This document shows positions 13,268 to 56,891 of a stretch of 64,000 nt of DNA, piece after piece. The stretch covers positions 31,428 through 95,427 of IMG/VR virus record IMGVR_UViG_3300005805_000054, one strand, 5' to 3'. Position 1 is the first letter of the stretch; every line of letters starts with the position of its first letter. The DNA comes from a virus. Its lineage: Duplodnaviria; Heunggongvirae; Uroviricota; Caudoviricetes. A model generated the notes under the pieces. It worked only from the letters and a program-made list of their open reading frames with translations. It was not told the origin of the DNA and did not search any database. A program made the translations under genes and the position numbers.

Positions 13268-14299
13268 ATGTATACAAATCAGTCAGTCAAACGCATTGGA
13301 TTTGCGTGTAAATGGGCAGAAATCAATAAGAAAGGTGAGATTGTTTCAGCCGAAGGTCTTAACACAGGCGGTACAACACAAGCATGGGCAAAGCGTAACA
13401 ACCGTAGTGTAGTAGAAGAAAAGATTATGGATGTTGCTAAACGCAATATTCTCAATACACATGCACTAGTTAAGAAAGTTGCAACACTTAATCCACAATT
13501 GCGTATGTTGCGTCTTACTAGTGATATGTTTTCATTTTATACCATGGATGGATACAAAGATTTCTGGCATAGTACCGATGTACAGAATAGCTTAGAACGT
13601 TGGATGGCACCTATCGGTGAAACTGCACGTGCCAATGATGTTCGTCTAAGTTTTCACCCCGATCAGTTTGTAGTTTTAGCAAGTGACCGTGAAGAAGTAG
13701 TAAATAAGAGTATAGAAGAATTTGAATATCATTGTGACATGGCTCGATGGATGGGTTATGGGCAAAAGTTTCAAGATATGAAAATCAATGTACATATCTC
13801 AGGACGTAGAGGACCACAAGGCATTAGAGATGTATACAACAGATTGTCGCCAGAAGCGAGAAACACACTTACACTAGAGAATGAGGAATATACACATGGA
13901 CTATCTGACTGCTTATCATTATCTGACCTCGTACCTACGGTCATGGACATCCATCACCACTCCATTCGGGAAATTGAATATATTAAATCTACTGATGACC
14001 GCATTAAAAAGGTTATTGACAGTTGGCGTGGTGTTCGTCCTACTATCCATTATTCTATTAGTAGGGAAGATGTACTTATCAACCATTCCAGATCAATCTT
14101 ACCCGATGTTAGTGCGTTGATTGAATCAGGACATAATAAACAAAAGTTACGGGCCCATAGTGACTATATGTGGTCAGATGCCGCAAACGATTGGGCATAC
14201 ACTCATTGGGATTGGGCCGATGTTATGGTGGAAGCAAAAGCCAAAAACCTAGCTAGTTTTAAACTGTTTGAGTATTGGAAAAGCCTTGAAATGAAGTGA
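13268..14299 (+). CDS. uvsE: UV DNA damage endonuclease (UvdE/UvsE family)
   Basis: 343 aa; collinear matches to the recalled B. subtilis UvsE sequence: VRLSFHPDQFVVLASD, INVHISGRRGPQG, TLTLENEE, MDIHHHS, HSDYMW, ADVMVEAKAKN. Confidence 0.8.
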   Translation: MYTNQSVKRIGFACKWAEINKKGEIVSAEGLNTGGTTQAWAKRNNRSVVEEKIMDVAKRNILNTHALVKKVATLNPQLRMLRLTSDMFSFYTMDGYKDFWHSTDVQNSLERWMAPIGETARANDVRLSFHPDQFVVLASDREEVVNKSIEEFEYHCDMARWMGYGQKFQDMKINVHISGRRGPQGIRDVYNRLSPEARNTLTLENEEYTHGLSDCLSLSDLVPTVMDIHHHSIREIEYIKSTDDRIKKVIDSWRGVRPTIHYSISREDVLINHSRSILPDVSALIESGHNKQKLRAHSDYMWSDAANDWAYTHWDWADVMVEAKAKNLASFKLFEYWKSLEMK

Positions 14300-16523: not shown

Positions 16524-16552
16524 TTGACAATAAATCATTTTGGGTGTATAAT
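16524..16552 (+). promoter_or_regulatory. early promoter cassette copy (TTGACAATAAAT-N-TATAAT)
   Basis: TTGACA 16524-16529, TATAAT 16547-16552, 17-bp spacer; followed by AGAGG RBS and ATG at 16584. Confidence 0.6.
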
Positions 16553-31846: not shown

Positions 31847-32644
31847 ATGAAAAACGTTTTTAAGATTTCCGCTATCGTTGCACTTGTAGCACTTGCAACG
31901 GGATGCACCCGTATCGAAACTGGTGAAGTTGGCGTACGTGTTGGCTTTGATAAACAAGTACAAAGTGGCGAGTTGCTGCCAGGTTCGTTTAATCAAGTAT
32001 TGATTGGCGATGTGCTTACATTCCCAGTTAAGGATGTTAACGTGGTGCTGGAGAATATGACTCCTGTTGCTAAAGATAACAGCACAATGAAAGACTTGGA
32101 TGCTGTGGTTGTTTACAACATCAACCCGCAACAAGTTGCCGAGTTGTATGCAACTAAGAACAAGAGCTTTCACGCTGAAGCTAAAGGCGACACTTATGTA
32201 ATGTATAACTACATTGTTCAAAATGCTCGTAATGCTATCTACAAGGCAGCACGTAAGTATGAAGCATTGGACATGGCAGACAATCGCACTGACATGGAAA
32301 ACTACATCAAGGAAGAAATTGTTCGCAACCTTTCTGAAGAAAAGTTGGACGGTTCCATTATGATCAGCCAGGTTATGATTCGCAATGTGTTGCCTTCTGA
32401 CACTGTTGTTGAGAGTGCCAACGCATTGGTTCGTAGTAAGAACGAACTCAAGCAGAAGGAAGTTGAAGTAAAAACTGCTGAGGCTGAAAGCCGTCGTATG
32501 GCAGCACTGGCTAATAACTCTGGCGCATCAATTGCATTCATGCAGGCTCAAGCTATGCTGAATATCTCAGAAGGCATTAAGAACGGTCAGGTACAGACAA
32601 TCGTTGTGCCATCCAACTTCAATGCTTTGATGATGCCAAAATGA
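31847..32644 (+). CDS. SPFH/band-7 (prohibitin/HflC-like) domain lipoprotein
   Basis: Start at ATG 31847 after TAAGGA RBS; lipobox LVALATGC; IETGEVGVRVGFDKQV... SPFH N-terminus; C-terminal coiled coil. Confidence 0.55.
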   Translation: MKNVFKISAIVALVALATGCTRIETGEVGVRVGFDKQVQSGELLPGSFNQVLIGDVLTFPVKDVNVVLENMTPVAKDNSTMKDLDAVVVYNINPQQVAELYATKNKSFHAEAKGDTYVMYNYIVQNARNAIYKAARKYEALDMADNRTDMENYIKEEIVRNLSEEKLDGSIMISQVMIRNVLPSDTVVESANALVRSKNELKQKEVEVKTAEAESRRMAALANNSGASIAFMQAQAMLNISEGIKNGQVQTIVVPSNFNALMMPK

Positions 32645-32755
32645 CATTCAACGAGTTTGTATATTTTATATGCGGAATCGTATGGGGTGTATGGATAATA
32701 CACCCTATAATTGATATAGGTAAAAAGATTTGGAAGAACGCTAAGGAGGCGCATA

Positions 32756-33847
32756 ATGGTAACAATCGTAAAACATGAATGGCATCAACACGATAGGCAA
32801 TATGCCATTGAACTTGATGAAGCACTATTAAGTGAAATCTATCCTGATTTGGATGAGGATGAGATTGTACAAAAACTCACAGACATTCAATCAGGTGAAG
32901 TTGATTTCGAAGAAGTTATCAATGATGCCTATGAGAATGACGTAGAGCTTGAATGGGACTTTCAATACGATGACTGCTGGACTGACCGTAAAGGTGGATA
33001 TGAGGTTACCTATGAATTAGGTGATGAATCAAGTTGGCATAATGTAGAAGAACCAGTTGATGAGGCTGATTTGGAAGCAGACCTTGAAGAACTTAAGCGT
33101 GAGTTTGAACAACTACCAGTAGAAGATAAAATTTCCGCACACTGGCCATCGCCAGATAGCGATTTCGTAGAAACTGCTAAATGGCCCTTTGAAGATGACG
33201 AGGATGATGGTTCATTAAAAGAAAGTTATCCGGAAGATACATATACAATTCGTATCTGGGGTCGTACACGTGAGATTGGTGTACATAAGATTAAGAAAGC
33301 ACAATACGAACATTGGAGTAGTGAAGAACACGAAGATGATTTGAGCGATGCCCTTAACGAGAACTATGATTACGATGATAATGAGACTCCTGAGGCCGCA
33401 CGATTTGATTTGCCTTATTACGAGTATCAAGGCAAACATTCATTCTGGGGCTTTGACCAAGATGATACTCACATGACTATTGAGAATAGCGAAGGTGAGA
33501 CTATCTACGATGGTGATTTGGAATCATTCTTTAGTGACGCACACGGTGATGAAGATAGTCGTTGGGAAACATCAGAAGAACAAGAAGAACTATATCCAGA
33601 ACATTTGGGTAAGGGCTATTGGTTGATGTGGACACAAGGTGGTAAAGGTTCTTGTATTCAAACTACTATTGAAGGTGTGTTTGAACCTAAGAAACTTAAA
33701 GCACTATATTGGGATGTTCAAGGTACAAGTGTTGTCACCCGACTTGTATATGATGGCGTTGAACTTGATGACGAGGGTATGGACAGTGACCATGATAACT
33801 GGCGTGGTCAATGGTCTACATTTAGTGTACATCATAATAAAAAATGA
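32756..33847 (+). CDS. highly acidic Trp-rich protein (possible DNA mimic)
   Basis: 363 aa; extreme D/E content with many W/Y/F; no enzymatic motifs. Confidence 0.5.
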   Translation: MVTIVKHEWHQHDRQYAIELDEALLSEIYPDLDEDEIVQKLTDIQSGEVDFEEVINDAYENDVELEWDFQYDDCWTDRKGGYEVTYELGDESSWHNVEEPVDEADLEADLEELKREFEQLPVEDKISAHWPSPDSDFVETAKWPFEDDEDDGSLKESYPEDTYTIRIWGRTREIGVHKIKKAQYEHWSSEEHEDDLSDALNENYDYDDNETPEAARFDLPYYEYQGKHSFWGFDQDDTHMTIENSEGETIYDGDLESFFSDAHGDEDSRWETSEEQEELYPEHLGKGYWLMWTQGGKGSCIQTTIEGVFEPKKLKALYWDVQGTSVVTRLVYDGVELDDEGMDSDHDNWRGQWSTFSVHHNKK

Positions 33848-34047
33848 TGACAGAAGAAATGCAACGATGTGTAGGCAAGACCTACACATTCGAAGATGGT
33901 AATAGCATTACTGTTATTCAAATCAAACGCCGAGATGAAGAACAATACTGGGTTACGTATTTGGTGAATACTGGTCCTGGTGTTCCCGCTAAATTTGTTT
34001 TAGAATGGGAACAATTCAAAGACCACTATATTCACTTATTCCCATAA
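33844..34047 (+). CDS. hypothetical protein
   Basis: 67 aa; ATGA overlap. Confidence 0.4.
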   Translation: MMTEEMQRCVGKTYTFEDGNSITVIQIKRRDEEQYWVTYLVNTGPGVPAKFVLEWEQFKDHYIHLFP

Positions 34048-34085
34048 TATGTAGATTAATAGGTCAACACATAACTAAATATTAG

Positions 34086-35741
34086 ATGCGCCTTAATTTT
34101 TTATCATTCTCAAATCTCACACTATTAGTAGCACTATCGCTTAGTTCGGTAGCTGCCTGGTATAGTATCATCGGCTTAACCGCTATCTTTGCAGGTGCGG
34201 TTATTCCTGTTATCATCATGGGTGGTATCCTAGAAGTAGGAAAGATTACTGCTACAGTATGGCTACGTAAATATTGGCGCCGTGCTGGTTGGTTATTAAA
34301 ACTATACCTAGTACCCGCTGTTATTGCACTTGCATTGCTTACTTCTATGGGCATTTTTGGTTTCTTAAGTAAAGCACACATGGAACATGGTATCAGTACT
34401 GGTGATAGTCAAGCCAAACTATCACTCTATGATGAAAAGATTAAAACACAACGAGACAATATTGAGTTAGCACGAAAAGCATTAACTCAAATGGACAATC
34501 AAGTTGACCAACGATTAAGTCGCGGTGATAGCGAGAATAGTGCTGAACGTGCCGTACAGATTCGTAGACAACAAACAGGTGAGCGCACTAAACTACAAAA
34601 AGAAATTGGTGATGCTCAAAAAGAAATTGCTAAACTAAATGAAGAACGAGCACCTATTGCGGCAGAGAATCGCAAGATAGAAGCAGAAGTTGGACCTATC
34701 AAGTATATTGCCGCATTGATTTACGGTGACAATGCTGATAACAATACACTAGAAGCGGCAGTACGTTGGGTTATTATCCTATTAGTTATTGTGTTTGATC
34801 CACTAGCCATTGCACTTGTTCTTGCGGCTAATGCAAGCAAAGAATGGGATAAAGAAGAACCTGTCAAAGAAGAATCTGGATATGAACCTGACGATGGTCC
34901 ACTAACTGACAAACAACTTGAACAGGTAGAAGAAACTGCTAAGGAAGACTTACCTGATGGTGAGTTGATTACTAAATCAGAGTTGTTTCCGGATGAATCT
35001 ATCAAGTGTTATAAATGCGGTACACCATTAATGGATGCTCCTAGTATCGGACTGTTCTGCCCTAATAAACAATGTGATGTAATAGACAATACTAAAGGCA
35101 TAGCGTGGACATTCATTCCACCTGAACCAATCGTAGAGCCTGAAAAGTCTATAGCAGAACTACATCCTTACTTGAATAAACCATTTGAACACTTTGAAAA
35201 CTTAGAACCAATGGTATATAAATCAGAAGTAGCAGAAAAACCAACTAAGCCAAAAAAGAAACGTGTCAAAAAAGAAGTAAAGCCTAATCCAGAGCCAGAG
35301 CCTACTGTTGATGCTAATGGCATGGATGTAAAACAAGACTTGCCATTCAAAGAATTACCTGGCGGCTATGTTTCATATCAAGGTAAGCATATGAATAAAG
35401 ATGCATTGTTTAGCCAGCATCCAGAATTCTTAAAATTATCTGCTGACGCTAGTAAACCTGTTAATAGCAGTTTTGGATCTAAATTTCCGAATGATGCTAA
35501 CAAGGGCGATGTGTTTACTAGAGTAGATGTATTACCCAATAAAGTGTTTAAGTATGATGGAAGAAATTGGATTGAGATTAATAAAGAAACATCCAACACA
35601 TACCTTTATAACACCAAATACCTTGAGTACCTTATTGAAATGATTGACAAGGGTGAATACGATCCTGAGTTATTATCAGACAATGAACGTGCCCAAATTG
35701 AAGATCATATTAAAATCAACAAACTTAACCAAAGTCATTGA
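34086..35741 (+). CDS. integral membrane protein with coiled-coil and zinc-ribbon (CxxC...CxxxxC)
   Basis: 551 aa; about four N-terminal TM helices, a long coiled-coil, CYKCGTPLMDAPSIGLFCPNKQCD zinc ribbon, a further TM (VIILLVIVFDPLAIALVLA). Confidence 0.55.
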   Translation: MRLNFLSFSNLTLLVALSLSSVAAWYSIIGLTAIFAGAVIPVIIMGGILEVGKITATVWLRKYWRRAGWLLKLYLVPAVIALALLTSMGIFGFLSKAHMEHGISTGDSQAKLSLYDEKIKTQRDNIELARKALTQMDNQVDQRLSRGDSENSAERAVQIRRQQTGERTKLQKEIGDAQKEIAKLNEERAPIAAENRKIEAEVGPIKYIAALIYGDNADNNTLEAAVRWVIILLVIVFDPLAIALVLAANASKEWDKEEPVKEESGYEPDDGPLTDKQLEQVEETAKEDLPDGELITKSELFPDESIKCYKCGTPLMDAPSIGLFCPNKQCDVIDNTKGIAWTFIPPEPIVEPEKSIAELHPYLNKPFEHFENLEPMVYKSEVAEKPTKPKKKRVKKEVKPNPEPEPTVDANGMDVKQDLPFKELPGGYVSYQGKHMNKDALFSQHPEFLKLSADASKPVNSSFGSKFPNDANKGDVFTRVDVLPNKVFKYDGRNWIEINKETSNTYLYNTKYLEYLIEMIDKGEYDPELLSDNERAQIEDHIKINKLNQSH

Positions 35742-35766
35742 CAACTAGTTACATTTAGCGTATAAT
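35738..35766 (+). promoter_or_regulatory. sigma70-like promoter (TTGACA-N17-TATAAT)
   Basis: TTGACA 35738-35743, TATAAT 35761-35766, immediately upstream of the lipoprotein gene. Confidence 0.5.
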
Positions 35767-35797
35767 AACTCTATCTGTAACTACAACCGAAGTATAT

Positions 35798-36466
35798 ATG
35801 AAACTCAAACTTTTAGCAATCTCAGTAGCACTAGTGTTGGCTGGGTGTTCATCAACTAGTAAAAATGCAAGTGTAGAATCTGCACCTATTACTGCTATCA
35901 ATGCACAAAAACTTACCTCTAGTTTTAAGCGACAGGGTATTAAGATTGAATGGTCTTGTGCATTCGGTACAGGACTGTTCGGCATGAGTGATGCATTGTG
36001 TGTCAAAGGTGAAATTCAAGCTATTGAAGTCACTGGCTACGCAAACAGTTTTGGTAATAGCGAAGCATTGCGTGAACGTGCATTTATTGCCGCAGAGATG
36101 GATGCTAAAGCACGATTGATTCGTTTTATGAACGAGGGTGTTGGCTCTAACAACTTTGCCAATACTGTCACTAAGAACGTAGAGAAAGCGCAAGACCGCA
36201 TTAAGAATCGCATCAAGTCCGACGAGGATGTTGAAATGAGCGATACAGATGCCGGTAAAGATACAAACTTTGCTATCCGTGAAAACAACAACGAGGTTGT
36301 TCGTACACTAAGTGAAAGCATTCGTAACAATGCTGAAGGTAAACTGCGTGGTGCATTACTCAAAGATACTGAAATCGTAGATAGACAAACTGTTAAAGCA
36401 GTTATTCGCTGGGATCATAATACTGAACGTGCCGCAACATACATGCGTAAACGCTTTGGTAACTGA
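35798..36466 (+). CDS. lipoprotein
   Basis: 222 aa; signal plus lipobox MKLKLLAISVALVLAGCSS. Confidence 0.55.
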   Translation: MKLKLLAISVALVLAGCSSTSKNASVESAPITAINAQKLTSSFKRQGIKIEWSCAFGTGLFGMSDALCVKGEIQAIEVTGYANSFGNSEALRERAFIAAEMDAKARLIRFMNEGVGSNNFANTVTKNVEKAQDRIKNRIKSDEDVEMSDTDAGKDTNFAIRENNNEVVRTLSESIRNNAEGKLRGALLKDTEIVDRQTVKAVIRWDHNTERAATYMRKRFGN

Positions 36467-37437
36467 TGAAATACCTGGTAGTACTACTAACTCTTGTTTG
36501 TAATATTGCATTAGCACAACCGATACGTGTAGAAGGTATCGGTAGTACATTACGACAGGCTAAAGATAACGCATTTAAAACTGCGGTAGAATTACAAGTT
36601 GGTTCTGTTCTAGTCAACGAATTAGAATCAAAAGACACCAAACTCATACGCAATGACATTATAAATTATAGTGCGGGCTATGTTGATAGTTATAAAATTA
36701 TCACTACTAACTCATACGATAATAAAGTTGTCGTCATAATTGATGTGTGGGTATCATCGAGCAAAATTGCAAATAGAATTTTAGGGACTAGCACTAATCC
36801 TAAAATATTTGACAATCAAACACAAAGCACACGATACGAAACTTATATCCAATCAAAACGTAATGGGGATATGTTGTTGCGTAGTGTGTTGAATGATTAT
36901 CCAAGTAAGGCATTTAGAGTACAACAAGGTCAACATAAGTTTGGTGTTGGTACTGACCGTAATCCTTTTATTGAAATAGGCTTTACTTTCAGATGGAACT
37001 ATAATTACATTGAATCATTCAATGAAACACTATCACTAATTGAAGATGGTAGCAACGGATTGTTTAGAACAAGCCCCGGCAATATCATCACTATGGCAAA
37101 AGACCCTAAAGATTATGTCTTGGGAAAAAAGAATCATTACAAATTCAATGATGTATTGGCTATGCATACTATCATTGATAGATTTAATAATTACAAGCCT
37201 AATATACAATTGATGATACACAATCAAAACAATAGTGTGTTTTATAAACAATGCTATACACCAGAATCGTTTACAGGAAGAAAGCCTGGATTATATTCTA
37301 TAGGAGATACCCTTATACTCTATGGCAATCAAACAGAAAACAATATAATAAGAATTCGTCTATCAAACATTGGTGATGCATTGAGATTTATAGAACGAAT
37401 TGAACTAAGTGTCGTTGGACATGAAAGTTGTAAGTGA
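36466..37437 (+). CDS. secreted protein
   Basis: 323 aa; signal peptide MKYLVVLLTLVCNIALAQP; ATGA overlap with the lipoprotein gene. Confidence 0.5.
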   Translation: MKYLVVLLTLVCNIALAQPIRVEGIGSTLRQAKDNAFKTAVELQVGSVLVNELESKDTKLIRNDIINYSAGYVDSYKIITTNSYDNKVVVIIDVWVSSSKIANRILGTSTNPKIFDNQTQSTRYETYIQSKRNGDMLLRSVLNDYPSKAFRVQQGQHKFGVGTDRNPFIEIGFTFRWNYNYIESFNETLSLIEDGSNGLFRTSPGNIITMAKDPKDYVLGKKNHYKFNDVLAMHTIIDRFNNYKPNIQLMIHNQNNSVFYKQCYTPESFTGRKPGLYSIGDTLILYGNQTENNIIRIRLSNIGDALRFIERIELSVVGHESCK

Positions 37438-37461
37438 ATAACAAAACAGATAAGTAGAACT

Positions 37462-38664
37462 ATGCCAACAGAAACAAAACTAAACCATTGCACTTTTTGT
37501 GATAAACACAAAGATGATGTTAAAAAACTAATTGTTAGTGAGGATGTAGCAATTTGCAGTGATTGTGTAGACCTATGCAATAAATTGATGCTAGACGAGG
37601 AGAATGAAAAACTAGAACCAGTTGAACATAGTGTATCATATGATCCTGAATCTATTAAAGAATTTCTTGACCAGCACATTATTGGACAAGATAGTGCCAA
37701 GAGTGTATTGAGTGTAGCTATTGCTAATCATTATAAACGCATTAACAAGCCACCAAAAGACTTGGAAATCTCTAAAGGTAATGTATTATTGATTGGTCCT
37801 ACTGGTAGCGGTAAAACATTACTTGCTAAGACTGTAGCAAAATACTTGGAAGTTCCCTTCATTGTAGCAGATGCAACAAGTATCACAGAAGCAGGATATG
37901 TAGGTGATGATGTTGAGTCAATGATTAGTATGCTAGTCAATGCCGCCGGCGGTGATCCTAGATTAGCAGAGCGTGGTATTGTGTTTGTTGACGAGATTGA
38001 CAAGATTGCCCGTCGAGGTGAAAGTGCTAGTATCACACGTGATGTATCAGGTGAGGGTGTTCAACAAGCATTGCTTAAGTTAGTTGAAGGTACTATTTGT
38101 CGGATTCCGGCTAGTGGTGGACGTAAGCATCCCGGTGGTGATATGCTTGAGATTAATACCAAAGACATTCTATTCATTGCTGGTGGTGCGTTTGTTGGAT
38201 TAAAAGAAATCATCAACAACCGTGAGAATGGTACAAGCATTGGCTTTGGTGCAGAGATTAAAGACAATCGTAAAGAATCAGAGTTGAATAATGTATCACC
38301 TGATGATTTAGTAAGATTCGGTATGATTCCTGAATTCATTGGTCGTTTTACTACTACAGTAAGTGTGAGCGACTTGACTAAGGATGAACTGATTAAGGTC
38401 CTTAAAGAAGTTAAGAACAACTATATTGACCAATATAAGTATTTGCTCAGTTTAGACAATGTTGCAATAGAGTTTACTGAGGATGCATTGGATCAACTAG
38501 CAGAAAATTGCTTGAAACTAAAGACAGGTGCACGTGGATTGCATACTGAGATTGAGCGCACATTAATGCCTCATATGTTTAACACTAAGACATATCGGAA
38601 AAACAACGTTACAGAGATAAATATAGATAGAGATTTAGTTTTGGAGCCAAAATCAGTAGTATGA
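37462..38664 (+). CDS. clpX: ATP-dependent Clp protease ATP-binding subunit ClpX
   Basis: 400 aa; N-terminal C4 zinc-binding domain (CTFCDK...CSDCVDLC), Walker A LLIGPTGSGKTLLAKT, GYVG pore loop, Walker B FVDEIDK, sensor and IGF-like regions. Confidence 0.85.
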   Translation: MPTETKLNHCTFCDKHKDDVKKLIVSEDVAICSDCVDLCNKLMLDEENEKLEPVEHSVSYDPESIKEFLDQHIIGQDSAKSVLSVAIANHYKRINKPPKDLEISKGNVLLIGPTGSGKTLLAKTVAKYLEVPFIVADATSITEAGYVGDDVESMISMLVNAAGGDPRLAERGIVFVDEIDKIARRGESASITRDVSGEGVQQALLKLVEGTICRIPASGGRKHPGGDMLEINTKDILFIAGGAFVGLKEIINNRENGTSIGFGAEIKDNRKESELNNVSPDDLVRFGMIPEFIGRFTTTVSVSDLTKDELIKVLKEVKNNYIDQYKYLLSLDNVAIEFTEDALDQLAENCLKLKTGARGLHTEIERTLMPHMFNTKTYRKNNVTEINIDRDLVLEPKSVV

Positions 38665-38876
38665 GTGGAAGAAAAGTATTAGTGCAAGACGGTAACTTTG
38701 ACAAAGCATTGCGTAAATTCAAAAAGAAGATTACGGATTCTGGGTTACTGCAGGAAGTTAGGGATAGACAACAATATGTCAAGCCCGCAGTCCAGCGCAA
38801 ACTTGCAAAAAGCCAGGCAAAAAGACGTTGGCAGAAATACTTACGTGACCAAAGTCTTCCTAAGAAAGACTTTTGA
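38661..38876 (+). CDS. rpsU: ribosomal protein bS21 homolog
   Basis: 71 aa; MSGRKVLVQDGNFDKALRKFKKKITDSGLLQEVRDRQQYVKPAVQRKLAKSQAKRRWQK is collinear with bacterial S21 (recalled as [52 protein letters not shown]...). Confidence 0.7.
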   Translation: MSGRKVLVQDGNFDKALRKFKKKITDSGLLQEVRDRQQYVKPAVQRKLAKSQAKRRWQKYLRDQSLPKKDF

Positions 38877-38981
38877 GTTCCAAAATAATAGATTTTTTTG
38901 CGTGTTTTAGTATAATAAATACGTATGTAGATGCCGATGGTCGGGTCTACAACAGTCATAACTTGCTTAATAGGAGAAAAA

Positions 38982-39419
38982 ATGACAAAAACTTTAACCC
39001 TTCGTTCCCTCGACATTCCGTCAATCGCTAAATTTGGTATCGGTTTCGATAACATGTTTGATGAACTTGCACGAATGAATAGTCAACAATCACTTAACTA
39101 TCCCCCATATAACATCGTCAAGAATACCGAAGATTCCTTCGATATTCAAGTAGCTGTATCTGGCTTTAGTCAGGGTGAAATTCAAGTTAACCTTGACAAC
39201 CGTGTATTGACTATCAAGGGACAGAAGAATGAGGAACTCATTGCTGAGTATCTACATAAAGGTATCAGTACACGTGATTTTGTGCGTGAGTTTACACTAG
39301 CAGAACACGTTGAGGTAATCAATGCTTCACAAAAAGATGGTATTTTGACTATTCAACTAGAACGAATTGTTCCGGAAGAAAAGAAGCCAAAAGCTATTGT
39401 TATTACTTACACTAAGTAA
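38982..39419 (+). CDS. small heat-shock protein (Hsp20/alpha-crystallin, IbpA-like)
   Basis: Start at 38982 after AGGAG; YPPYNIVK...FDIQVAVSGFSQGEIQVNLDNRVLTIKGQ...GILTIQLER alpha-crystallin domain. Confidence 0.8.
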   Translation: MTKTLTLRSLDIPSIAKFGIGFDNMFDELARMNSQQSLNYPPYNIVKNTEDSFDIQVAVSGFSQGEIQVNLDNRVLTIKGQKNEELIAEYLHKGISTRDFVREFTLAEHVEVINASQKDGILTIQLERIVPEEKKPKAIVITYTK

Positions 39420-39480
39420 TATAATAGAGGTTCAATAAATAAGTGTGCGGGGGAACTCGCACACATTAACAAAGAAAATT

Positions 39481-39798
39481 ATGTCTAAAACTGATACTAA
39501 AACTGATACTAAAATTAAAATCAAACCTAATCTTGCTTTAAGAGAGCCTCCATTGTATAAAATCATTTATATCAATGATGAAGTGACCAGCATGAATTTT
39601 GTCGTAAACAGCTTGATTAGTTATTTTAATTATAACGAAGATACAGCTACATTATTAACGCATAACATTCATAGTGAAGGTAGTGCCATCGTAGCTGTAT
39701 TGCCCTATGAAATTGCAGAACAACGCGGAATTGAAGTTACACTAGACGCACGTAGTCAAGGTTTCCCGCTACAAATCAAAGTAGAAGCTGAAGCTTAA
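39481..39798 (+). CDS. clpS: ClpS-like Clp protease adaptor
   Basis: LYKIIYINDEVTSMNFVVNSLISYF...ATLLTHNIHSEGSAIVAVLPYEIAEQ matches the ClpS core; N-terminal TDTKTDTK tandem repeat. Confidence 0.6.
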   Translation: MSKTDTKTDTKIKIKPNLALREPPLYKIIYINDEVTSMNFVVNSLISYFNYNEDTATLLTHNIHSEGSAIVAVLPYEIAEQRGIEVTLDARSQGFPLQIKVEAEA

Positions 39799-40502
39799 AT
39801 TTCTATATCTATTCGCTTAGGCCAATAAGGCTCTTTGCCGAAACAAGAATTGTTGATATAATTTATATTGTCTATAGTTGTGTCAACAATCTTATCATAA
39901 CTCCCGTAAACCCAATGACTGACTTTAAATTCAGTATCGCTAAGTAATGTATCTTTTAGCGCAAAATACTCTGATATATTGTGCGGTTCTTCTCCAAAGA
40001 ACAGTTCGGGGCTAGGTGCTGAATGTGTGACTACTAGGATCTTTTTCACATCTAGATGTAATTGTAGCTTTCCTAAACTAAGTCCTAGATATTGAATATC
40101 TTCCATGTGCTGTGCATGAAGATGGAGTTTTTCTAACTCTGAATCTAGTTCCATTTCTATCTTATTTACATACCAGCCGTTGCAGCCAAGTATTGCAATT
40201 CCGTTGATTATTACAACATGCTTGTGTAGATATGCGACATTTGCTATAGTCCTACACAATTTGTTTAATTCATCATGGCGGTGTTTTACAAAGTGCATAG
40301 ATTCGTGTTCAGACGAACCTGCTATGTAAAACACCCCTTGATAAAATCTACTCAAATGAAGCAGTGTTTGATGTACTACTCGCAAGTTATTGCTAATATT
40401 ACCGGCTATAACTAGGTACAGGCTAGTAGCCTTCCCGTCCCAGTTAAATTCATCTTCAGCGTCCAGATTAAGGTCGCTGATAACATCAAACCCTATTTTC
40501 AT
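39795..40502 (-). CDS. calcineurin-like metallophosphoesterase-like protein (motifs degenerate)
   Basis: 235 aa; ISDLNL / AGNISN / GSSEHE / VVTHSAP resemble phosphoesterase motifs I-IV with substitutions. Confidence 0.4.
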   Translation of the reverse strand: MKIGFDVISDLNLDAEDEFNWDGKATSLYLVIAGNISNNLRVVHQTLLHLSRFYQGVFYIAGSSEHESMHFVKHRHDELNKLCRTIANVAYLHKHVVIINGIAILGCNGWYVNKIEMELDSELEKLHLHAQHMEDIQYLGLSLGKLQLHLDVKKILVVTHSAPSPELFFGEEPHNISEYFALKDTLLSDTEFKVSHWVYGSYDKIVDTTIDNINYINNSCFGKEPYWPKRIDIEI

Positions 40503-40834
40503 TAAGCCTGAGGCTTAGCCTTAGTTGCTCTTGGCTTAGCAGGGGCTTTTGCTTTTGTAGCTGCCGGAGCTTTTGCTTTTGCTGGTGCTCTAGGCTTTGC
40601 CGGTGCTTTGGCTTTTACAGGTTTAACTGCCTCTACAACCAAAGGAATCGGTGTAGTTGCGGCTGGCTCCGGTACTTTGTACGGGGCAGTGACATTATCC
40701 GGGGCAGATGTGACTACTTCATCTGGTTTCTTCTCATCACGGATGAAAAACCACCAAAGTGCGCCACCCAAAAATACTAATGCTACAATAATTTCCATTT
40801 GAATTCTCCTAAACATATATTTAATCGGATTCAT
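40502..40834 (-). CDS. membrane-anchored protein with Pro/Ala/Lys (KAPAK) repeat tail
   Basis: 110 aa; N-terminal TM (IIVALVFLGGALWWFFI), then AKAPAKPRAPAKAKAPAATKAKAPAKPRATKAKPQA low-complexity tail (TonB/H1-like). Confidence 0.45.
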   Translation of the reverse strand: MNPIKYMFRRIQMEIIVALVFLGGALWWFFIRDEKKPDEVVTSAPDNVTAPYKVPEPAATTPIPLVVEAVKPVKAKAPAKPRAPAKAKAPAATKAKAPAKPRATKAKPQA

Positions 40835-40898
40835 TCCATAAACTTTTTTTCCTGATAACTGTGTAGTTTCTGCGATGGAATAGTATTATAAATACATC

Positions 40899-41390
40899 AT
40901 GTTCAGAAAAGCTAATCTCGCCGAACTTATGCGTGAGGAGTTACCTCCTATAGCATATCAAAAACGTCTTTGTTATAGGACCGACTATAACGAAGTAGTA
41001 TCACTTTATCGTTTAATTAATAAGACGATTTTCAACAATAAACTAATCATGCCTGAGATTGAGGTTATGCCCCGTTGTAGAAAATACTGGGGAATGTGCT
41101 ACGGTGCAACTACTATGCCCACTAAGTCTAAAAGCTATTGTAAAATTAGAATGATGGACAAATGGTATTGCCGTCAATGGTTAATTACTATATTAGCACA
41201 TGAAATGTGTCACCAATATCAGTGGGATGTTGAGGGTCTAAAAAGACTTCATATAGGAAAAGAACCTATTATGAGTCATGGACCTAGTTTCTTTATATTC
41301 CGAGACAAATTAAAGAAATATGGAATCTGTTTAAAAAGCGCACATAGCAGACGCAGATGGTTCCTACATCAAAACTTGTTTAAGTGTTAA
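40899..41390 (+). CDS. SprT-like zinc metallopeptidase domain protein
   Basis: 163 aa; ITILAHEMCHQYQW contains the HExxH motif in a SprT-like context. Confidence 0.5.
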   Translation: MFRKANLAELMREELPPIAYQKRLCYRTDYNEVVSLYRLINKTIFNNKLIMPEIEVMPRCRKYWGMCYGATTMPTKSKSYCKIRMMDKWYCRQWLITILAHEMCHQYQWDVEGLKRLHIGKEPIMSHGPSFFIFRDKLKKYGICLKSAHSRRRWFLHQNLFKC

Positions 41391-42494
41391 TTATTTTAAG
41401 TTTGGATTGTCTACGACATTGCCAAACTGGTCAACAAGAATAACATCTTTCTTTCCCGTCTTACCAATACCGCGAGTTAATGTCACACCTAGAGGACGAA
41501 TACCCGCAATGCCTAATGCGCCTCCGTTACGGGTACTATCATTACGTAGTAACCAAACCATCATGTGACTTTCTGGGATCTCAGCGGCATTAGTAATAAC
41601 AGCATGACATTGAACCGTGACGTTATTATCTACTTGCTTGAAATGCTCTGGCTTGAATGTTTGAACGACAACACCTCCTTTAGGATTTAAGTCATTACCA
41701 AATACAGCACTCAATGCCTCTTGTTCAGTTGGCTCCATGACAATCTCTTTAGATAACGCATAAACAGGAACGGGGCCCGACTTCATTTTGCGTTCGCCAA
41801 CTGGCTGTAATTTTACGATACCATCTTTGATTAGTTTGTCTAATATAGAACGAGCCCGTTGACCAAACATATTATCAGCACTTTCCCACATATCCGCATC
41901 TAGCTTTTTAATACTGATTGGCAAACTGCCTCTTTCACTGGTCAATACCACATCAGCTTTCTTGCGGTCTGCCGTGTCACGACCGGCAACTTCAACATTT
42001 GTACAGTTACGAATAGTCATTTTCTTACCACGTGGATCAACGAATGTAACATTAGCCGAACCATATTTCTGAATCAATGACTGTAGCAAACTAGCCATTT
42101 CTAATTCATTAGCAACACCGGCACTATTATCACCTTGCTTGCCCGTGTCTTTAACCACAACTGTAATTGGACTATTACTGAATACAACTCCGCCCAAACT
42201 ACTGATACCTGGATCAGCACTATATTCTGCGTCTCCTTCGGGAAGTTGTTTTTGTAAGATTGCTAAAATTTCATTAAGTATGGCAGTACGGAACTCATTT
42301 TTCTTTTGTCCAGCTGGGATTTGAACCAATACATTAATCTTGTTTCCGTTTGGTTTCAAATCTTCATAACCATTCTTACGAAGAATCTGTTCAACTTGAC
42401 CCTTAGTCACAGGTTGGGGTTGAATATCAACTTTACCAGCGGTTGGTTGGGCGGCTCTTTCTACCAAAGTTCTTGCAAATTCGTTGTATCTCAT
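41391..42494 (-). CDS. hypothetical protein
   Basis: 367 aa minus-strand ORF between the SprT-like gene and clpP; no recognised motifs. Confidence 0.5.
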   Translation of the reverse strand: MRYNEFARTLVERAAQPTAGKVDIQPQPVTKGQVEQILRKNGYEDLKPNGNKINVLVQIPAGQKKNEFRTAILNEILAILQKQLPEGDAEYSADPGISSLGGVVFSNSPITVVVKDTGKQGDNSAGVANELEMASLLQSLIQKYGSANVTFVDPRGKKMTIRNCTNVEVAGRDTADRKKADVVLTSERGSLPISIKKLDADMWESADNMFGQRARSILDKLIKDGIVKLQPVGERKMKSGPVPVYALSKEIVMEPTEQEALSAVFGNDLNPKGGVVVQTFKPEHFKQVDNNVTVQCHAVITNAAEIPESHMMVWLLRNDSTRNGGALGIAGIRPLGVTLTRGIGKTGKKDVILVDQFGNVVDNPNLK

Positions 42495-42575
42495 ATATAA
42501 TATCTCAAAGAGTTAATGAAGTGATAATTATATCACCGATTCTATATTTATCGAAAATTTTATAAAAGGAAACTT

Positions 42576-43163
42576 ATGAGTCTAGTCCCAATCGTCATTG
42601 AACAAACAGCTAAAGGTGAGCGTAGTTATGACATTTACAGCCGTCTATTGCGTGACCGTGTTATTTTGCTTGAGGGCGAAGTGCATGACCAAATGGCGAA
42701 CTTGATTGTTGCCCAGCTACTGTTCTTGGAATCTGAGGGTGAGAAGGATATCTCAATGTACATTAATAGCCCAGGAGGTAGCGTAACTGCTGGTATGGCT
42801 ATCTATGATTGTATGCAATTCATCAAACCCGATGTGCAGACAATCGTTATGGGACAAGCATGTTCAATGGGTAGTTTGCTTGCTAATGCAGGTGCACCCG
42901 GCAAACGTATGATGTTGCCAAACGCACGACACATGATTCATCAACCCAGTGGTGGTGCCCGAGGTATGCAAAGTGACATTGAAATCAGCTACAAAGAAAT
43001 CACATACTTGAAAAAGCGATTGACTGATATCTATGTCAAGCACAACAGTGCAGGAAAGACATATGAAGAATTTGAACGGGATATGGATCGTGACAAGTTT
43101 ATGAGTGCTGACGAAGCATTAGCATATGGTCTAATCGACAAAATCATCGATAAACGCAATTAA
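42576..43163 (+). CDS. clpP: ATP-dependent Clp protease proteolytic subunit ClpP
   Basis: 195 aa; [34 protein letters not shown] (Ser), [19 protein letters not shown] (His) catalytic-triad context. Confidence 0.9.
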
Positions 43164-46193: not shown

Positions 46194-47201
46194 ATGAAAA
46201 AACTAACAGCATTAGTAGGTGCATTACTAATATCAACGGTCGCATTTAGTGCAGACATCACAGGAGCAGGTGCTACCTTCCCATTCCCGATCTATGCTAA
46301 GTGGGCTGAAGGCTACAAAAAAGCTACAGGCACAGGCATGAACTATCAAAGCATTGGAAGTTCGGGCGGCATTAGACAAATCAACGCAAAGACAGTAGAA
46401 TTTGGTGCTACAGATGCTCCAGTAAGCGGAGAGAATTTAGACAAGATGGGTCAAGTTCAGTTTCCTGCTATCATCGGCGGAACAGTGCCTGTAGTAAACT
46501 TAGACGGATTCAAGCCCGGCGAACTACGCATCACCGGACCTGTTATGGCTGAAGTGTTTATGGGCAATATTAATCGTTGGAATGACCCTAAACTAGTAGC
46601 ACTAAATCCAGGTAAGAATTTGCCTAATACAGAGATAACTATTGTACATCGTGCTGATGGCAGTGGCACAACATTCAACTGGACCGATTACTTGGCTACA
46701 GTCAGTCCAGAGTGGTTACAGCGTGTTGGTCGTGGCGCCGCAGTTAAGTGGCCAGCTGCTACATCAGTAGGTGGCAAGGGCAATGAAGGTGTTGCAGCCA
46801 ACGTCAACAGAATCAAAGGTTCAATTGGTTATGTAGAGTATGCTTATGTTAAGAAAAACAACATGACGTTCCTACAATTACAAAACAAGAGTGGTAAGTA
46901 TGTTAGTCCAGATGACTTAACATTTGCCGCAGCCGCTGACGGTGCTGATTGGTTCAGTGTTCCGGGTATGGGACTGAGTATTGTGGATCAAAAGAATCCT
47001 AATGCTTGGCCAGTAAGTTCGGCAAGTTTTATTATCATGTACAAAGAACCAAAGAACAAAGCTACTAGTGATGAAGTGTTAAAGTTTTTTGATTGGGCAT
47101 TTAAGAATGGTAAGAAAGATGCTGTAGATTTAGATTACGTGCCTTTACCAGATGCACTAACAAAGCAGATCCGTGAGCGTGTTTGGACACAGATAAAATA
47201 A
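46194..47201 (+). CDS. pstS: phosphate ABC transporter substrate-binding protein PstS
   Basis: 335 aa; signal peptide; GAGATFPFPIYAKWAEGYKKATG...YQSIGSSGGI...FGATDAP signature of PstS. Confidence 0.85.
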   Translation: MKKLTALVGALLISTVAFSADITGAGATFPFPIYAKWAEGYKKATGTGMNYQSIGSSGGIRQINAKTVEFGATDAPVSGENLDKMGQVQFPAIIGGTVPVVNLDGFKPGELRITGPVMAEVFMGNINRWNDPKLVALNPGKNLPNTEITIVHRADGSGTTFNWTDYLATVSPEWLQRVGRGAAVKWPAATSVGGKGNEGVAANVNRIKGSIGYVEYAYVKKNNMTFLQLQNKSGKYVSPDDLTFAAAADGADWFSVPGMGLSIVDQKNPNAWPVSSASFIIMYKEPKNKATSDEVLKFFDWAFKNGKKDAVDLDYVPLPDALTKQIRERVWTQIK

Positions 47202-53403: not shown

Positions 53404-54423
53404 ATGTCTAAAAAATACAACACACTGGTCCTTATTGGACGCTTTCAACCCCTGCACAATGCTCACCTTGAGATTATCAAACGTGCCACAGCATTGACTG
53501 ACCAACTGATTATCATCACTGGTTCTGCAAAACAACCTCGCACATACAAGAATCCCTTCACAAGTGCCGAACGTGCAGTAATGATTAAGAACGCTACTCG
53601 CGGTCTTGATATGCAGGTCTACATTGAAGAAAACATTGACACCATTTATAACGACCAAGCATGGGCAGTGCGTGTTCAAGGCATTGTAAGCAAGTACAAC
53701 TTACTTGGTGGCAAGGTCGGTATCATCGGTCACAAGAAAGATGATTCTAGTTTTTACCTTGACATGTTCCCGCAATGGGGATATGAGAATGTAGGACTCA
53801 TTGAATTTTTGAGTGCTGTTGACATTCGTGACCTGTATTTTAAGCGTGATGTTAACATGAAATTTATTCAAGGTGTGGTTCCGGAAACTACATTTGATTT
53901 CTTAGAACAGTTCCGCACTACGCCTGAGTATGAACAAATTATCCGCGAACGTGAGTTTGTAGCTAACTACAAAAAGCAATATGCATCGTTGCCTTATCCC
54001 CCAATCTTCTCTACTGCGGATGCGGTCGTAATTCAATCAGGTCATGTACTGATGATTAAACGCCGTAGCGAACCCGGTAAAGGTCTGTGGGCATTGCCCG
54101 GTGGTTATGTGAATGCTAACACGGACAAGAGTGTAGAGGATGCGGCTATTCGTGAACTCAGAGAAGAAACAATGATTAAAGTGCCCGCACCCGTATTGCG
54201 AGGTAGCATCAAGCGTAGTAAGGTCTTTGATGCGATTGGTCGTAGTCCGCGTGGTCGTATTATCACCCATGCATTTCACATTGAATTACCCGATGGTGAA
54301 CTGCCTAAAGTAAAAGGCAGTGATGATGCTGAAAAGGCACGTTGGGTTCCTATTGCAGAGGTCAAGTCAGAGGAAACTTTTGAGGACCACTACGAAATTT
54401 TGCAACACTTTCTTGGAGCTTGA
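53404..54423 (+). CDS. natV: bifunctional NMN adenylyltransferase / Nudix hydrolase (NadM-Nudix, NatV-like)
   Basis: 339 aa; N-terminus LIGRFQPLHNAHLEII (archaeal-type NMNAT HxxH), C-terminal Nudix box GGYVNANTDKSVEDAAIRELREETMIKV. Confidence 0.8.
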   Translation: MSKKYNTLVLIGRFQPLHNAHLEIIKRATALTDQLIIITGSAKQPRTYKNPFTSAERAVMIKNATRGLDMQVYIEENIDTIYNDQAWAVRVQGIVSKYNLLGGKVGIIGHKKDDSSFYLDMFPQWGYENVGLIEFLSAVDIRDLYFKRDVNMKFIQGVVPETTFDFLEQFRTTPEYEQIIREREFVANYKKQYASLPYPPIFSTADAVVIQSGHVLMIKRRSEPGKGLWALPGGYVNANTDKSVEDAAIRELREETMIKVPAPVLRGSIKRSKVFDAIGRSPRGRIITHAFHIELPDGELPKVKGSDDAEKARWVPIAEVKSEETFEDHYEILQHFLGA

Positions 54424-55411: not shown

Positions 55412-55440
55412 TTGACATTAAAATAGGTTAGTGTTATACT
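55412..55440 (+). promoter_or_regulatory. sigma70-like promoter for nadV (TTGACA-N17-TATACT)
   Basis: TTGACA 55412-55417, TATACT 55435-55440. Confidence 0.5.
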
Positions 55441-55493
55441 GTAAACAAGTCCTAGCGATAGACGCAAGGCAATTTAACTTAAAAGGAACTTTT

Positions 55494-56891
55494 ATGAAAC
55501 TCTCACATAATCCCATTTTGAACACAGATTCCTATAAGTGTTCAATGTTTTTACAAATGCCTCCAGGAACTACTGGTGTTTATTCATACATTGAATCCCG
55601 CGGGGGGCGTTACGATCAAACAGTATTCTTCGGACTACAGGCTTTTATCAAAGAGTACCTACTCGAACCCATTACTCAAGCCGACATTGATGTGGCTGAA
55701 GAAATCCTTACCGCACACGGTGAGCCTTTCAACCGAGCAGGATGGCAATACATACTGGACAAGCACAATGGATACCTCCCGGTTGTCATCAGAGCAGTCT
55801 CTGAAGGAACGGTTGTGCCAGTTAGAAATGTTCTTGCTACAATTGAAAACACAGATCCAGAATGCTTCTGGTTGACTACTTGGCTTGAGACTGCATTGCT
55901 CCGAGCAGTGTGGTACGGTACTACTGTATCTACACAAAGCAAATACATTAAAAACATCATCGCCGAATACTTGGAGAAATCAGGTGACCCTACAACTATT
56001 GACTTTAAGCTTCACGACTTCGGTGCTCGTGGCGTATCTTCTATGGAGTCTGCTGGTATTGGCAGTGCCGCACACCTTGTCAACTTCATGGGTACCGACA
56101 CTATTACTGGTGTTTTGTTTGCTCGTGAATACTACAATGCTGGTATCGCTGGTTTTTCAATCCCAGCCGCAGAGCATTCAACAATCACCAGTTGGGGTCG
56201 TGCAGGTGAAGTAAAAGCATACAGCAACATGGTTAGTCAATTCGGCAAGCCAGGTGCATTGTTGGCAGTTGTATCTGACAGCTACGACATTTACGAAGCA
56301 TGCCGCATGTGGGGCACTGAGTTGAAACAACAAGTGATTGATAGCGGTGCTACAGTTGTTATTCGTCCAGACAGTGGTGATCCAGTTGATGTGTTGCCAA
56401 AGATGTTCCGCATTTTGGCTGAAGGTTTCGGCTACACTACAAACAGTAAAGGCTACAAAGTACTGAACAATGTTCGTGTATTGTGGGGTGACGGTATCAA
56501 CCAATTGGGCATCAAGTCAATTCTTGGGGTGATTGTTGATGTACATGGCTACAGCATGGATAACATTGCATTCGGTATGGGTGGTGCATTGTTGCAACAA
56601 CTTGACCGTGATACACAAAAGTTCGCTATGAAGTGTTCAAGTGCAGAAGTCAACGGTGAATGGGTTGATGTGTTCAAAGATCCAATCACTGACCAAGTGA
56701 AAGCCTCTAAGAAAGGTCGTGTCACTCTTTGGCAATCCGGTGGTGAATTCGCATCTAGTGTTGAAGCACCAAGAGGATGGACTGACAAAGGCATTGGTCC
56801 TTGGACTGATGCTCTGGTGGAAGTATTCCGTGATGGTAAACTCATCCGCGAATACACCTTTAACGAAGTTCGTGCCAACAGCATGAAATAA
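55494..56891 (+). CDS. nadV: nicotinamide phosphoribosyltransferase (NadV/NAMPT)
   Basis: 465 aa from the ATG at 55494 (RBS AAAAGGAA); NPILNTDSYKCSMF N-terminus, HDFGARGVSS, GTDTITGV, RPDSGDPVD signature regions of NAMPT. Confidence 0.85.
   Translation: MKLSHNPILNTDSYKCSMFLQMPPGTTGVYSYIESRGGRYDQTVFFGLQAFIKEYLLEPITQADIDVAEEILTAHGEPFNRAGWQYILDKHNGYLPVVIRAVSEGTVVPVRNVLATIENTDPECFWLTTWLETALLRAVWYGTTVSTQSKYIKNIIAEYLEKSGDPTTIDFKLHDFGARGVSSMESAGIGSAAHLVNFMGTDTITGVLFAREYYNAGIAGFSIPAAEHSTITSWGRAGEVKAYSNMVSQFGKPGALLAVVSDSYDIYEACRMWGTELKQQVIDSGATVVIRPDSGDPVDVLPKMFRILAEGFGYTTNSKGYKVLNNVRVLWGDGINQLGIKSILGVIVDVHGYSMDNIAFGMGGALLQQLDRDTQKFAMKCSSAEVNGEWVDVFKDPITDQVKASKKGRVTLWQSGGEFASSVEAPRGWTDKGIGPWTDALVEVFRDGKLIREYTFNEVRANSMK

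Follow-up and report, generated by a model that had tools for sequence, protein, structure and literature searches.

In Escherichia coli, clpP and clpX form one operon, clpS and clpA another, and rpsU, dnaG, and rpoD a third, with ibpA in yet another. We describe here a phage locus that brings such genes together. It lies in a stretch of Caudoviricetes DNA of 64,000 nucleotides (IMG/VR record IMGVR_UViG_3300005805_000054, positions 31,428 to 95,427; below, the window), in which ClpX is followed by ribosomal protein bS21, a small heat-shock protein of the Hsp20 family, ClpS, and a convergent phosphoesterase-like gene, with ClpP nearby. Unlike the bacterial arrangement, this order is phage specific and joins genes of separate bacterial operons, and clpS does not adjoin clpA. 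Gene identities, intact motifs, synteny, translational coupling, purifying selection, and RNA covariation together make it fairly probable, in our view, that the locus is a jumbo-phage cassette, conserved within its lineage, whose products supplement the host machinery for translation initiation and protein quality control during infection.

Parts of this set have been described before. Attai et al. reported seven Clp-family proteins in Agrobacterium phage Atu_ph07 (PMC6102473), and Iyer et al. discussed jumbo-phage ClpP, SprT, Hsp20, and ClpA/ClpX, as well as ClpS, which they predicted to feed host ClpAP (PMC7824862). Across 900 published phages, Chen et al. found 127 cases of Hsp20 no more than 10 genes away from bS21, along with 50 and 47 cases for two Clp protease pVOGs (PMC9723584). 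An earlier note on this DNA, made from the sequence without database searches, had put forward the co-localized set as a novelty; that claim falls, because the cassette is already annotated in Pseudomonas phage PA5oct, and phage Clp proteins are discussed or counted in the three papers just cited. The gene set and its co-localization are in databases and partly in the literature. What the present analysis adds to the known picture is the coupling of ClpX to S21 or initiation factor 3 (IF3), a variable slot after ClpX, and a phage-borne ROSE-like leader. A limited literature search found no description of the cassette as a fixed unit, of the coupling between ClpX and a 30S initiation factor, of the variable slot, or of the thermometer. 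FtsH and TilS are treated in the papers on PA5oct and MIJ3, which make no mention of Clp, S21, or heat shock, and a 2026 jumbo-phage review likewise mentions none of the three.

PA5oct and MIJ3 (Wroclawvirus) resemble the window in encoding ClpX, an overlapping S21, Hsp20, and ClpS in that order (EST35_0255-0260). In PA5oct, ClpX is EST35_0255, S21 is 0256, the heat-shock protein is 0259, and ClpS is 0260; the two small genes between S21 and Hsp20 are extra relative to the window. The cassette is annotated similarly in Callisto, Cassandra, and other cultured Pseudomonas phages. Protein identity between the window and PA5oct is 42% for ClpX, 52% for S21, 30% for Hsp20, and 29% for ClpS; the order is thus kept down to 42% ClpX identity. 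The surroundings differ. Behind PA5oct ClpS come a membrane protein that interacts with FtsH, then FtsH itself, and a DNA ligase, and PA5oct has a metallophosphoesterase upstream rather than a convergent phosphoesterase after ClpS. Its ClpP lies at 180.4 kb, about 7.5 kb downstream of the cassette, and DnaJ-ClpA lies at 193.6 kb, so that FtsH, ClpP, DnaJ, and ClpA all fall within about 26 kb.

Agrobacterium phage Atu_ph07 and Sinorhizobium phage Phosso offer a second comparison. As in the window, ClpX, Hsp20, ClpS, and ClpP follow one another in this order along a single strand, with identities to the window of 66 to 70% for ClpP and 50% for ClpX. Unlike the window, they have IF3 rather than S21 directly after ClpX, and numerous inserts, including a thymidine kinase between Hsp20 and ClpS, stretch the set to about 28 kb. 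Both additionally encode ClpA, ClpB, and DnaJ. Phage bS21 itself is known from freshwater phages, and the window protein is like those described by Chen et al. in 2022 and by Mizuno et al. in 2019 in having the canonical length. In the five clades of Chen et al., predicted to be Bacteroidota phages, bS21 is a late-expressed gene on the reverse strand, with terminase, portal, and capsid genes around it (PMC9723584), whereas in the window an early-type promoter precedes the coupled pair of clpX and the bS21 gene, and the window genes use Shine-Dalgarno sites. This Shine-Dalgarno usage, together with perfect sigma70 promoters, argues against a Bacteroidota host.

In the window, the identities of the named genes are clear. 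Pfam matches were judged by gathering cutoffs and NCBIfam matches by equivalog or subfamily cutoffs, and all seven genes named in the earlier note score above the Pfam gathering cutoffs at the coordinates given there, with S21, ClpS, and the SPFH protein included. ClpX occupies positions 37462-38664 (+), with Pfam scores of 108.5 bits for AAA_2, 45.7 for zf-C4_ClpX, and 37.2 for ClpB_D2-small. It is followed by bS21 (38661-38876, +), a protein of 71 amino acids that has the canonical length and exceeds its curated threshold (Ribosomal_S21, 62.2 versus 27; TIGR00030, 62.1 versus 28.95). The Hsp20 gene, encoding an IbpA-like small heat-shock protein with an alpha-crystallin domain (38982-39419, +; PF00011, 65.9 versus 20.8), begins 105 nt after S21; its AUG at 38982, the start given in the earlier note, is preferred over the open reading frame-finder start at 38931, as evidenced by the alignment to the Rfam ROSE_3 model described below and by a strong Shine-Dalgarno site. 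After a further 61 nt comes the ClpS N-degron adaptor (39481-39798, +; PF02617, 80.1 versus 23), and ClpP of the cellular type lies at 42576-43163 (+; CLP_protease, 265.7 bits). The clpX stop and the rpsU start share an ATGA at 38661-38664, and such overlap is confined to this pair. Megablast with the 11.3-kb region gave no match among GenBank phages, and the identity of the locus was therefore drawn from protein-level and IMG/VR comparisons. The window contains rIIA/rIIB, homing endonucleases, and NAMPT, and IMG/VR holds at least 278 ClpX relatives, on contigs of up to 524 kb and typically of 230 to 364 kb; these markers and the relatives on large contigs identify the window as phage DNA. The contig itself comes from an uncultivated phage and is an ENA metagenome assembly.

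Conservation was assessed by tblastn of the window proteins against 80 IMG/VR relatives and 115 further loci retrieved through an RNA motif; removal of duplicates left 125 distinct ClpX loci. The order ClpX, S21, Hsp20, ClpS, and minus-strand phosphoesterase is present in 100 of the 125. Every one of 102 ClpX/S21 junctions overlaps, 94 of them by the 4-nt ATGA. Where the flank is long enough, nearly all close relatives have ClpP 3 to 4 kb downstream. Pairwise ratios of nonsynonymous to synonymous substitution rates (dN/dS) are about 0.03 to 0.2 across the clade for ClpX, S21, Hsp20, ClpS, ClpP, SprT, and the phosphoesterase, with values of 0.01 to 0.21 for S21. Judged by synteny, ClpX, usually S21, Hsp20, ClpS, and the phosphoesterase make up the core, to which a nearby ClpP belongs. 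These comparisons support a conserved, selected cassette of ClpX, S21, Hsp20, and ClpS, with ClpP a few kilobases away, over a chance neighborhood, and to this extent they support the earlier note.

The gene that follows ClpX is variable. This slot holds bS21 in most loci and is empty in some. In two relatives, L059 (11267-13189) and L060, it is filled by a full-length DnaK/HSP70 (850 bits), and in the cultured phages Atu_ph07 and Phosso it is filled by IF3. In Vibrio phage 2.275.O, IF3 comes first, followed by S21 and then by a ClpS-like gene. All the occupants found belong to families that act in translation initiation or protein folding, and we argue for a functional theme because translation and chaperone genes alternate at this position. 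A further candidate, gp259 of phage G, also lies downstream of ClpX, but it has no Pfam match and was not given the label IF3.

The variability of the slot can be read differently. The locus might be an insertion hotspot that gathers host-derived genes, in which case adjacency would be mechanistically meaningless. The slot does change between S21, DnaK, and nothing; SprT and SPFH genes come and go; homing endonucleases lie nearby; and the genes have separate promoters. Set against this are a five-gene order fixed in four-fifths of the distinct loci and kept in PA5oct at 29 to 52% protein identity, a conserved 4-nt ClpX/S21 overlap, strong purifying selection, and the restriction of the slot to translation and chaperone genes. 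We regard a hotspot without function as improbable. A bolder reading, to which we would give only a slim chance, is that the invariant coupling between ClpX and a component of 30S initiation (bS21 in the window and PA5oct, IF3 in Atu_ph07 and Phosso, IF3 and S21 in the Vibrio phage) marks a direct functional link. Phage ClpX could then act on host ribosomes, for example by pulling bS21, IF3, or hibernation factors of the host out of 30S subunits, and the co-made phage factor would substitute for them. If true, this would amount to an unfoldase-driven takeover of the ribosome, complemented by ClpS and by an Hsp20 gated by temperature or stress under ROSE control.

The Clp proteins retain the features expected of their families. 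Like bacterial ClpXP and ClpS-ClpAP, the window proteins keep all the defining motifs of ClpX, ClpP, and ClpS. ClpX exceeds two NCBIfam cutoffs (NF003745 equivalog, 512.9 versus 359; TIGR00382, 489.1 versus 370.75). Alignment to E. coli ClpX (8e91) places its zinc finger at C10/C13/C32/C35, Walker A at 112-119, the pore-1 GYVG at 145-148, Walker B at D177/E178, RKH at 221-223, the IGF ClpP-docking loop at 260-262, and the sensor-2 arginine in GARGL. ClpP has its catalytic triad at S97 (GQACSMG), H122 (MIHQP), and D173 (DRDKF), as evidenced by alignment to solved ClpP structures in the PDB. It exceeds the cutoff of the subfamily model NF001368 (304.7 versus 249) and falls slightly under that of TIGR00493 (292.9 versus 308.6). 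The best NCBIfam match of the Hsp20 protein is IbpA (NF008013), at 110.6 versus an equivalog cutoff of 212, which makes the protein IbpA-like rather than an IbpA equivalog. On these comparisons, the cassette proteins look functional.

The ClpP scores bear on the idea that the genes serve virion morphogenesis, with ClpP as a prohead maturation protease and ClpX and Hsp20 as chaperones of capsid or tail assembly. RefSeq labels homologs "head maturation protease" (e.g., in Atu_ph07 and PA5oct), Attai et al. raised this option (PMC6102473), and bS21 stands beside structural genes in the other phage clades of Chen et al. (PMC9723584). The window protein passes the cellular ClpP model, whereas its score against the ClpP-related head-maturation model NF045542 is 102, below the cutoff of 120, and on these NCBIfam scores the assignment of ClpP as a prohead protease was rejected. 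No structural genes were found in the 64-kb window. A prohead protease distinct from ClpP, gp152, is encoded by PA5oct (PMC7318152), and in the annotation of this phage, the cassette proteins lack the mark for virion detection through ESI-MS/MS that neighboring genes bear. A morphogenetic role is, in our estimation, very improbable.

ClpS is more diverged by model score, with NCBIfam equivalogs at 55 to 69 bits, all under cutoffs of 112 to 159. Its substrate pocket is nevertheless recognizable: relative to E. coli ClpS (2w9r/1mbu), the equivalents of N34, D35, T38, M40, and H66 are identical and D36 is replaced by E, and at the contacts with the ClpA N-domain, E79 is identical and K84 is replaced by R. 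The importance of these pocket and contact residues is well established for ClpS. ClpS is an adaptor of ClpA or ClpC, not of ClpX (cited in PMC6102473 and PMC7824862), and ClpXP with ClpS is for this reason not a self-contained N-degron pathway. The earlier description of a full ClpXP protease with an N-degron adaptor thus stands as far as genes and intact motifs go, but the adaptor cannot be paired with that protease, and the window has no ClpA. ClpA is encoded elsewhere in the genomes of PA5oct, Atu_ph07, Phosso, Vibrio phage 2.275.O, and Rak2-like phages, and since these cultured relatives do so, a phage ClpA elsewhere in the present genome of about 350 kb is plausible, with host ClpA as the alternative.

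Conservation of these ClpS residues would also suit an account in which ClpXP, and ClpS with ClpAP, are aimed at specific host proteins, such as defense proteins, regulators, or hibernation factors. Here ClpS may be mainly an inhibitor or redirector of host ClpAP; E. coli ClpS turns ClpA away from ssrA-tagged substrates, according to Dougan et al. 2002 as cited by Attai et al. (PMC6102473). Iyer et al. see the patchily distributed jumbo-phage peptidases ClpP, ClpS, and SprT as weapons against host proteins (PMC7824862), and early-type sigma70 promoters in front of ClpX and ClpP would fit such a use. The cassette, however, is strongly conserved rather than patchy, its holdase (with DnaK, DnaJ, or FtsH in relatives) suits general proteostasis better, and the sequence yields no identifiable dedicated adaptor, degron, or target. 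We consider targeted takeover less likely than general support, though a live rival to it.

Transcription of the locus appears to be divided among several units. Perfect TTGACA-N17-TATAAT promoters number 15 in the window, versus 0.12 expected; every one is on the plus strand, and they share the extended consensus TTGACAATAAATGGnTTTGGGtnTATAAT. This pattern implies a strong early class served by host sigma70, plus an extra conserved element in the spacer. PA5oct is similar to this prediction in that its transcription is of the sigma70 type and dependent on host RNA polymerase; the phage is rifampicin sensitive and has TTGAC/TATAATA promoters (PMC7318152). One promoter with a 12/12 match (35738-35766, +) heads lipo222-sec323-clpX-rpsU, and a promoter is kept at the same position in relatives. 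In relatives, a sigma70-type promoter also lies upstream of ClpP; in the window, a minus-strand gene of 367 amino acids is inserted there. An inverted repeat, GTGATA-ATTA-TATCAC (42521-42536, +), overlaps a weak promoter-like site upstream of clpP and could be an operator. Upstream of the clpX ATG, positions 37445-37461 (+) carry a conserved AGATAAGTA(t/g)(t/a)a(a/c)(t/c)ATG without a Shine-Dalgarno site, unlike most genes of the window.

Just upstream of the Hsp20 leader, a ATAAATAC box (38915-38922, +; (A/T)ATAAATA(C/T) in relatives) is a possible promoter. It resembles the T4 late promoter TATAAATA. Because neither sequence is enriched in the window (ATAAATAC, 7 versus 4.3 expected; TATAAATA, 3 versus 5.6 expected), the late-promoter reading is kept as a lead only. 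The copies of ATAAATAC, at 17321, 23405(-), 23950, 30620, 38915, 40888, and 43203, all lie just upstream of gene starts, with Hsp20, SprT, DUF7487, and a 956-amino-acid open reading frame among the genes behind them; the box ends 4 to 5 nt before the ATG of SprT and DUF7487. Another candidate for a general promoter motif, AWTATAATAG, was rejected after a single occurrence in the window.

Between Hsp20 and clpS (39418-39464, +), a AATATAATAG box right after the Hsp20 stop is followed by the hairpin GTGTGCGGGGGAACTCGCACAC (39443-39464). This hairpin shows compensatory changes at seven of nine pairs, with a T-run after it in most relatives; in the window, the T-run is on the minus-strand side, and the hairpin was scored as terminator-like on the minus strand. 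The element is likely an intrinsic terminator, possibly bidirectional, or an attenuator before clpS. Separate conserved promoter-like elements precede lipo222, Hsp20, ClpS, and ClpP, and at least four transcription units with different control are predicted. The earlier proposal that overlapping stops and starts indicate co-expression applies to clpX and rpsU and fails for the rest, which are separated by the 105-nt and 61-nt gaps and distributed over these predicted units. A single operon or one temporal class is not supported, given the predicted separate promoters, the terminator-like hairpin, and three minus-strand genes inside the block (39795-40502, 40502-40834, and 41391-42494).

The Hsp20 gene has a leader of its own. 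Positions 38925-38987 (+) align over the full length of Rfam ROSE_3 (RF02523) as a two-hairpin 5' leader. Hairpin I is GUAGAUGCCGAUGGUCGGGUCUAC; hairpin II, CUUGCU-UAAU-AGGAG, is predicted to occlude the Shine-Dalgarno site, and an outer GUCAU/AUGAC stem is predicted to occlude the AUG. Thus, the leader has the architecture of a ROSE element: it lies in the 5' untranslated region of a small heat-shock protein gene, with a stable 5' hairpin and a 3' hairpin that pairs U(U/C)GCU with the Shine-Dalgarno site. Among 36 distinct leaders, hairpin I shows compensatory changes at 8 of 10 pairs, and UUGCU and GGAG are invariant; the folding z score is -2.89. The ROSE_3 model also matches at the same position in the divergent relatives L123 (34.5 bits) and L138 (24.7 bits). 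It gave no detection in PA5oct, where Hsp20 is likewise preceded by a leader of two hairpins with the UUGC/AGGAG architecture. At least 120 viral stretches contain the motif GATGCCGA-N1-2-GTCGGGTC...TYGCT, and Hsp20 lies directly downstream of it in 111 of 115 new viral loci. Bacterial genomes with the motif are mostly Pseudomonas and allies, and 82 of 120 hits are directly upstream of an Hsp20 homolog.

Krajewski et al. characterized the two-hairpin ROSE-like thermometer of Pseudomonas ibpA experimentally (PMC3669281). Like that element, the phage leader is about 60 nt long and has two hairpins directly upstream of an IbpA-type small heat-shock protein; common to both are a GC-rich hairpin I core (GAUGCCGA..UCGGGUC) and a hairpin II that pairs U(U/C)GCU with the Shine-Dalgarno site. 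The two also differ. The phage leader scores 26 to 35 versus 43 bits and has a shorter hairpin II, its AUG is predicted to be paired whereas that of Pseudomonas ibpA is unpaired, and the ATAAATAC box takes the place of the sigma32 promoter. From these likenesses, we infer that the phage leader is ROSE-like and homologous to the Pseudomonas ibpA thermometer, with a putative thermometer role. A leader of this type hints at a gammaproteobacterial origin for the donor of the element only. If the thermometer role is true, the phage would read temperature or proteotoxic stress to time its chaperone; we found no earlier report of a phage-borne ROSE-type thermometer in a limited search.

Taken together, these features suggest how a cassette that supports host translation initiation and protein quality control might work, with the activities, partners, timing, and targets all predicted. 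Host RNA polymerase with sigma70 would transcribe lipo222-sec323-clpX-rpsU early, and the ATGA overlap would couple translation so that ClpX and bS21 are made together. ClpX hexamers would then dock through their IGF loops on ClpP, either that of the host or that of the phage, which has a promoter to itself, giving active ClpXP, and bS21 would enter host 30S subunits. The IbpA-type holdase would be produced from a separate start signal, its ROSE-like leader hiding the Shine-Dalgarno site and AUG until heat or an equivalent trigger opens it. ClpS would bind N-degron substrates and hand them to a ClpA-type unfoldase, which could be that of the host or a ClpA from another part of the phage genome. 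As a net effect, a cell mass-producing hundreds of phage proteins would stay translating and free of aggregates, possibly with its proteolysis redirected.

Several observations weigh against this reading. S21 is the sole absentee in 14 of the 125 loci, the remaining incomplete loci being truncated, and is thus dispensable to the cassette. In the 115-locus comparison, many of the divergent relatives showed no ClpP close to the cassette. The partner of ClpS is assumed: the 64-kb window lacks ClpA, and in IMG/VR searches with the Atu_ph07 ClpA as a query and then with a seven-sequence ClpA alignment, none of the matches listed could be placed on the large contigs of the clade, their contig names showing no overlap with those of the cassette contigs. 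For the leader, the ROSE_3 score of 26.4 bits is below the gathering threshold of 43 (E=0.078 in 18.5 kb), and in the nearest-neighbor model of ViennaRNA, which leaves out the noncanonical pairs of ROSE elements, the AUG-occluding stem stays closed at 4 to 50°C and changes little over that range. The text of the PA5oct paper gives no timing for gp255-260. Finally, general support and targeted proteolysis are hard to separate by sequence alone.

The cassette is widespread and under strong selection, as evidenced by the 125 distinct loci, the IMG/VR ClpX relatives, and the cultured Pseudomonas phages. PA5oct and P. aeruginosa are genetically tractable, which makes the questions of bS21, ClpX/ClpP, ClpS/ClpAP, and the thermometer directly testable.

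Other genes of the region are less tightly associated with the core. The SprT-like zinc metallopeptidase (40899-41390, +; PF10263, 33.3 versus 25.6) has its HExxH at H101-E102-M-C-H105 in the translation and matched no NCBIfam model. It is present in about two-thirds of close relatives and in 37 of the 115 other loci. The SPFH/Band_7-domain lipoprotein (31847-32644, +; PF01145, 61.6 versus 23.6; PHROG 200 "lipoprotein," 1.5e-31) has a lipoprotein signal ending in ...LATGC and is separated from ClpX by 4.8 kb filled with unrelated genes. A gene of this kind lies near the cassette in about 10 of the 80 close relatives and in 2 of the 115 others, and homologs occur in 193 unrelated phage records, including Salmonella, Acinetobacter, Escherichia, and Synechococcus phages. 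Its membership in the module, as first proposed, was rejected on this synteny and distribution. From these patterns, SprT looks facultative, and the SPFH protein looks like an independent accessory lipoprotein. The further claim that the latter belongs to the HflK/C family, which regulates FtsH, is not borne out: no NCBIfam family, HflK/HflC included, matched at E≤1e-3, FtsH is not among the scanned open reading frames of the window, and by sequence the connection to FtsH holds at the superfamily level only.

The metallophosphoesterase-like gene that converges with clpS (39795-40502, -; PHROG 1649, 2.7e-9) has no Pfam match. By eye, its motifs are degenerate, with SDLNL for DxH, AGNIS for GDxxDR, and GSSEHE for GNHE, and the protein may be catalytically inactive.

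Upstream of clpX, five uncharacterized genes at 32756-37437 (+) are as syntenic with it as the cassette itself. They encode an acidic protein of 363 amino acids, a protein of 67 amino acids, a membrane protein of 551 amino acids with a weak DUF4407 match, and, both on the clpX promoter, a lipoprotein and a secreted protein. This final pair is lipo222 (35798-36466, +; lipobox in the translation) and sec323 (36466-37437, +; signal sequence in the translation). They matched nothing in Pfam or PHROG, precede clpX syntenically across the clade, and have dN/dS values of 0.02 to 0.5.

One relative is of note for its size. The record IMGVR_UViG_3300027749_002876 (524,565 bp) carries two diverged whole cassettes, L002 and L012, about 400 kb apart, whose ClpX proteins are 93% and 81% identical to that of the window. 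This suggests that two related phage genomes are joined end to end in the record and that it is not one genome of 524 kb.

Elsewhere in the window, an open reading frame of 837 amino acids (10325-12838, -), in which a GP88 (PF17338) domain and five GVAEG repeats occur, lies 25 kb from the cassette and is unrelated to it. Its processing was put forward in the earlier note as one possible purpose of the module, next to degradation of host defense proteins and biased translation. Perfect sigma70-type promoters are spread over the window (e.g., at 16524, 24998, 35738, 47553, and 58174). Its other genes encode a PstS-like protein, an ATP-dependent ligase, UvdE, and a NadR-like NMNAT-Nudix protein. 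Auxiliary genes for a PstS-like phosphate-binding protein, the NMNAT-Nudix protein, and the UvdE UV endonuclease are found at 46194-47201, 53404-54423, 55431-56891, and 13268-14299, and the NadR-like NMNAT-Nudix fusion adjoins NAMPT, the two forming an NAD salvage pair.

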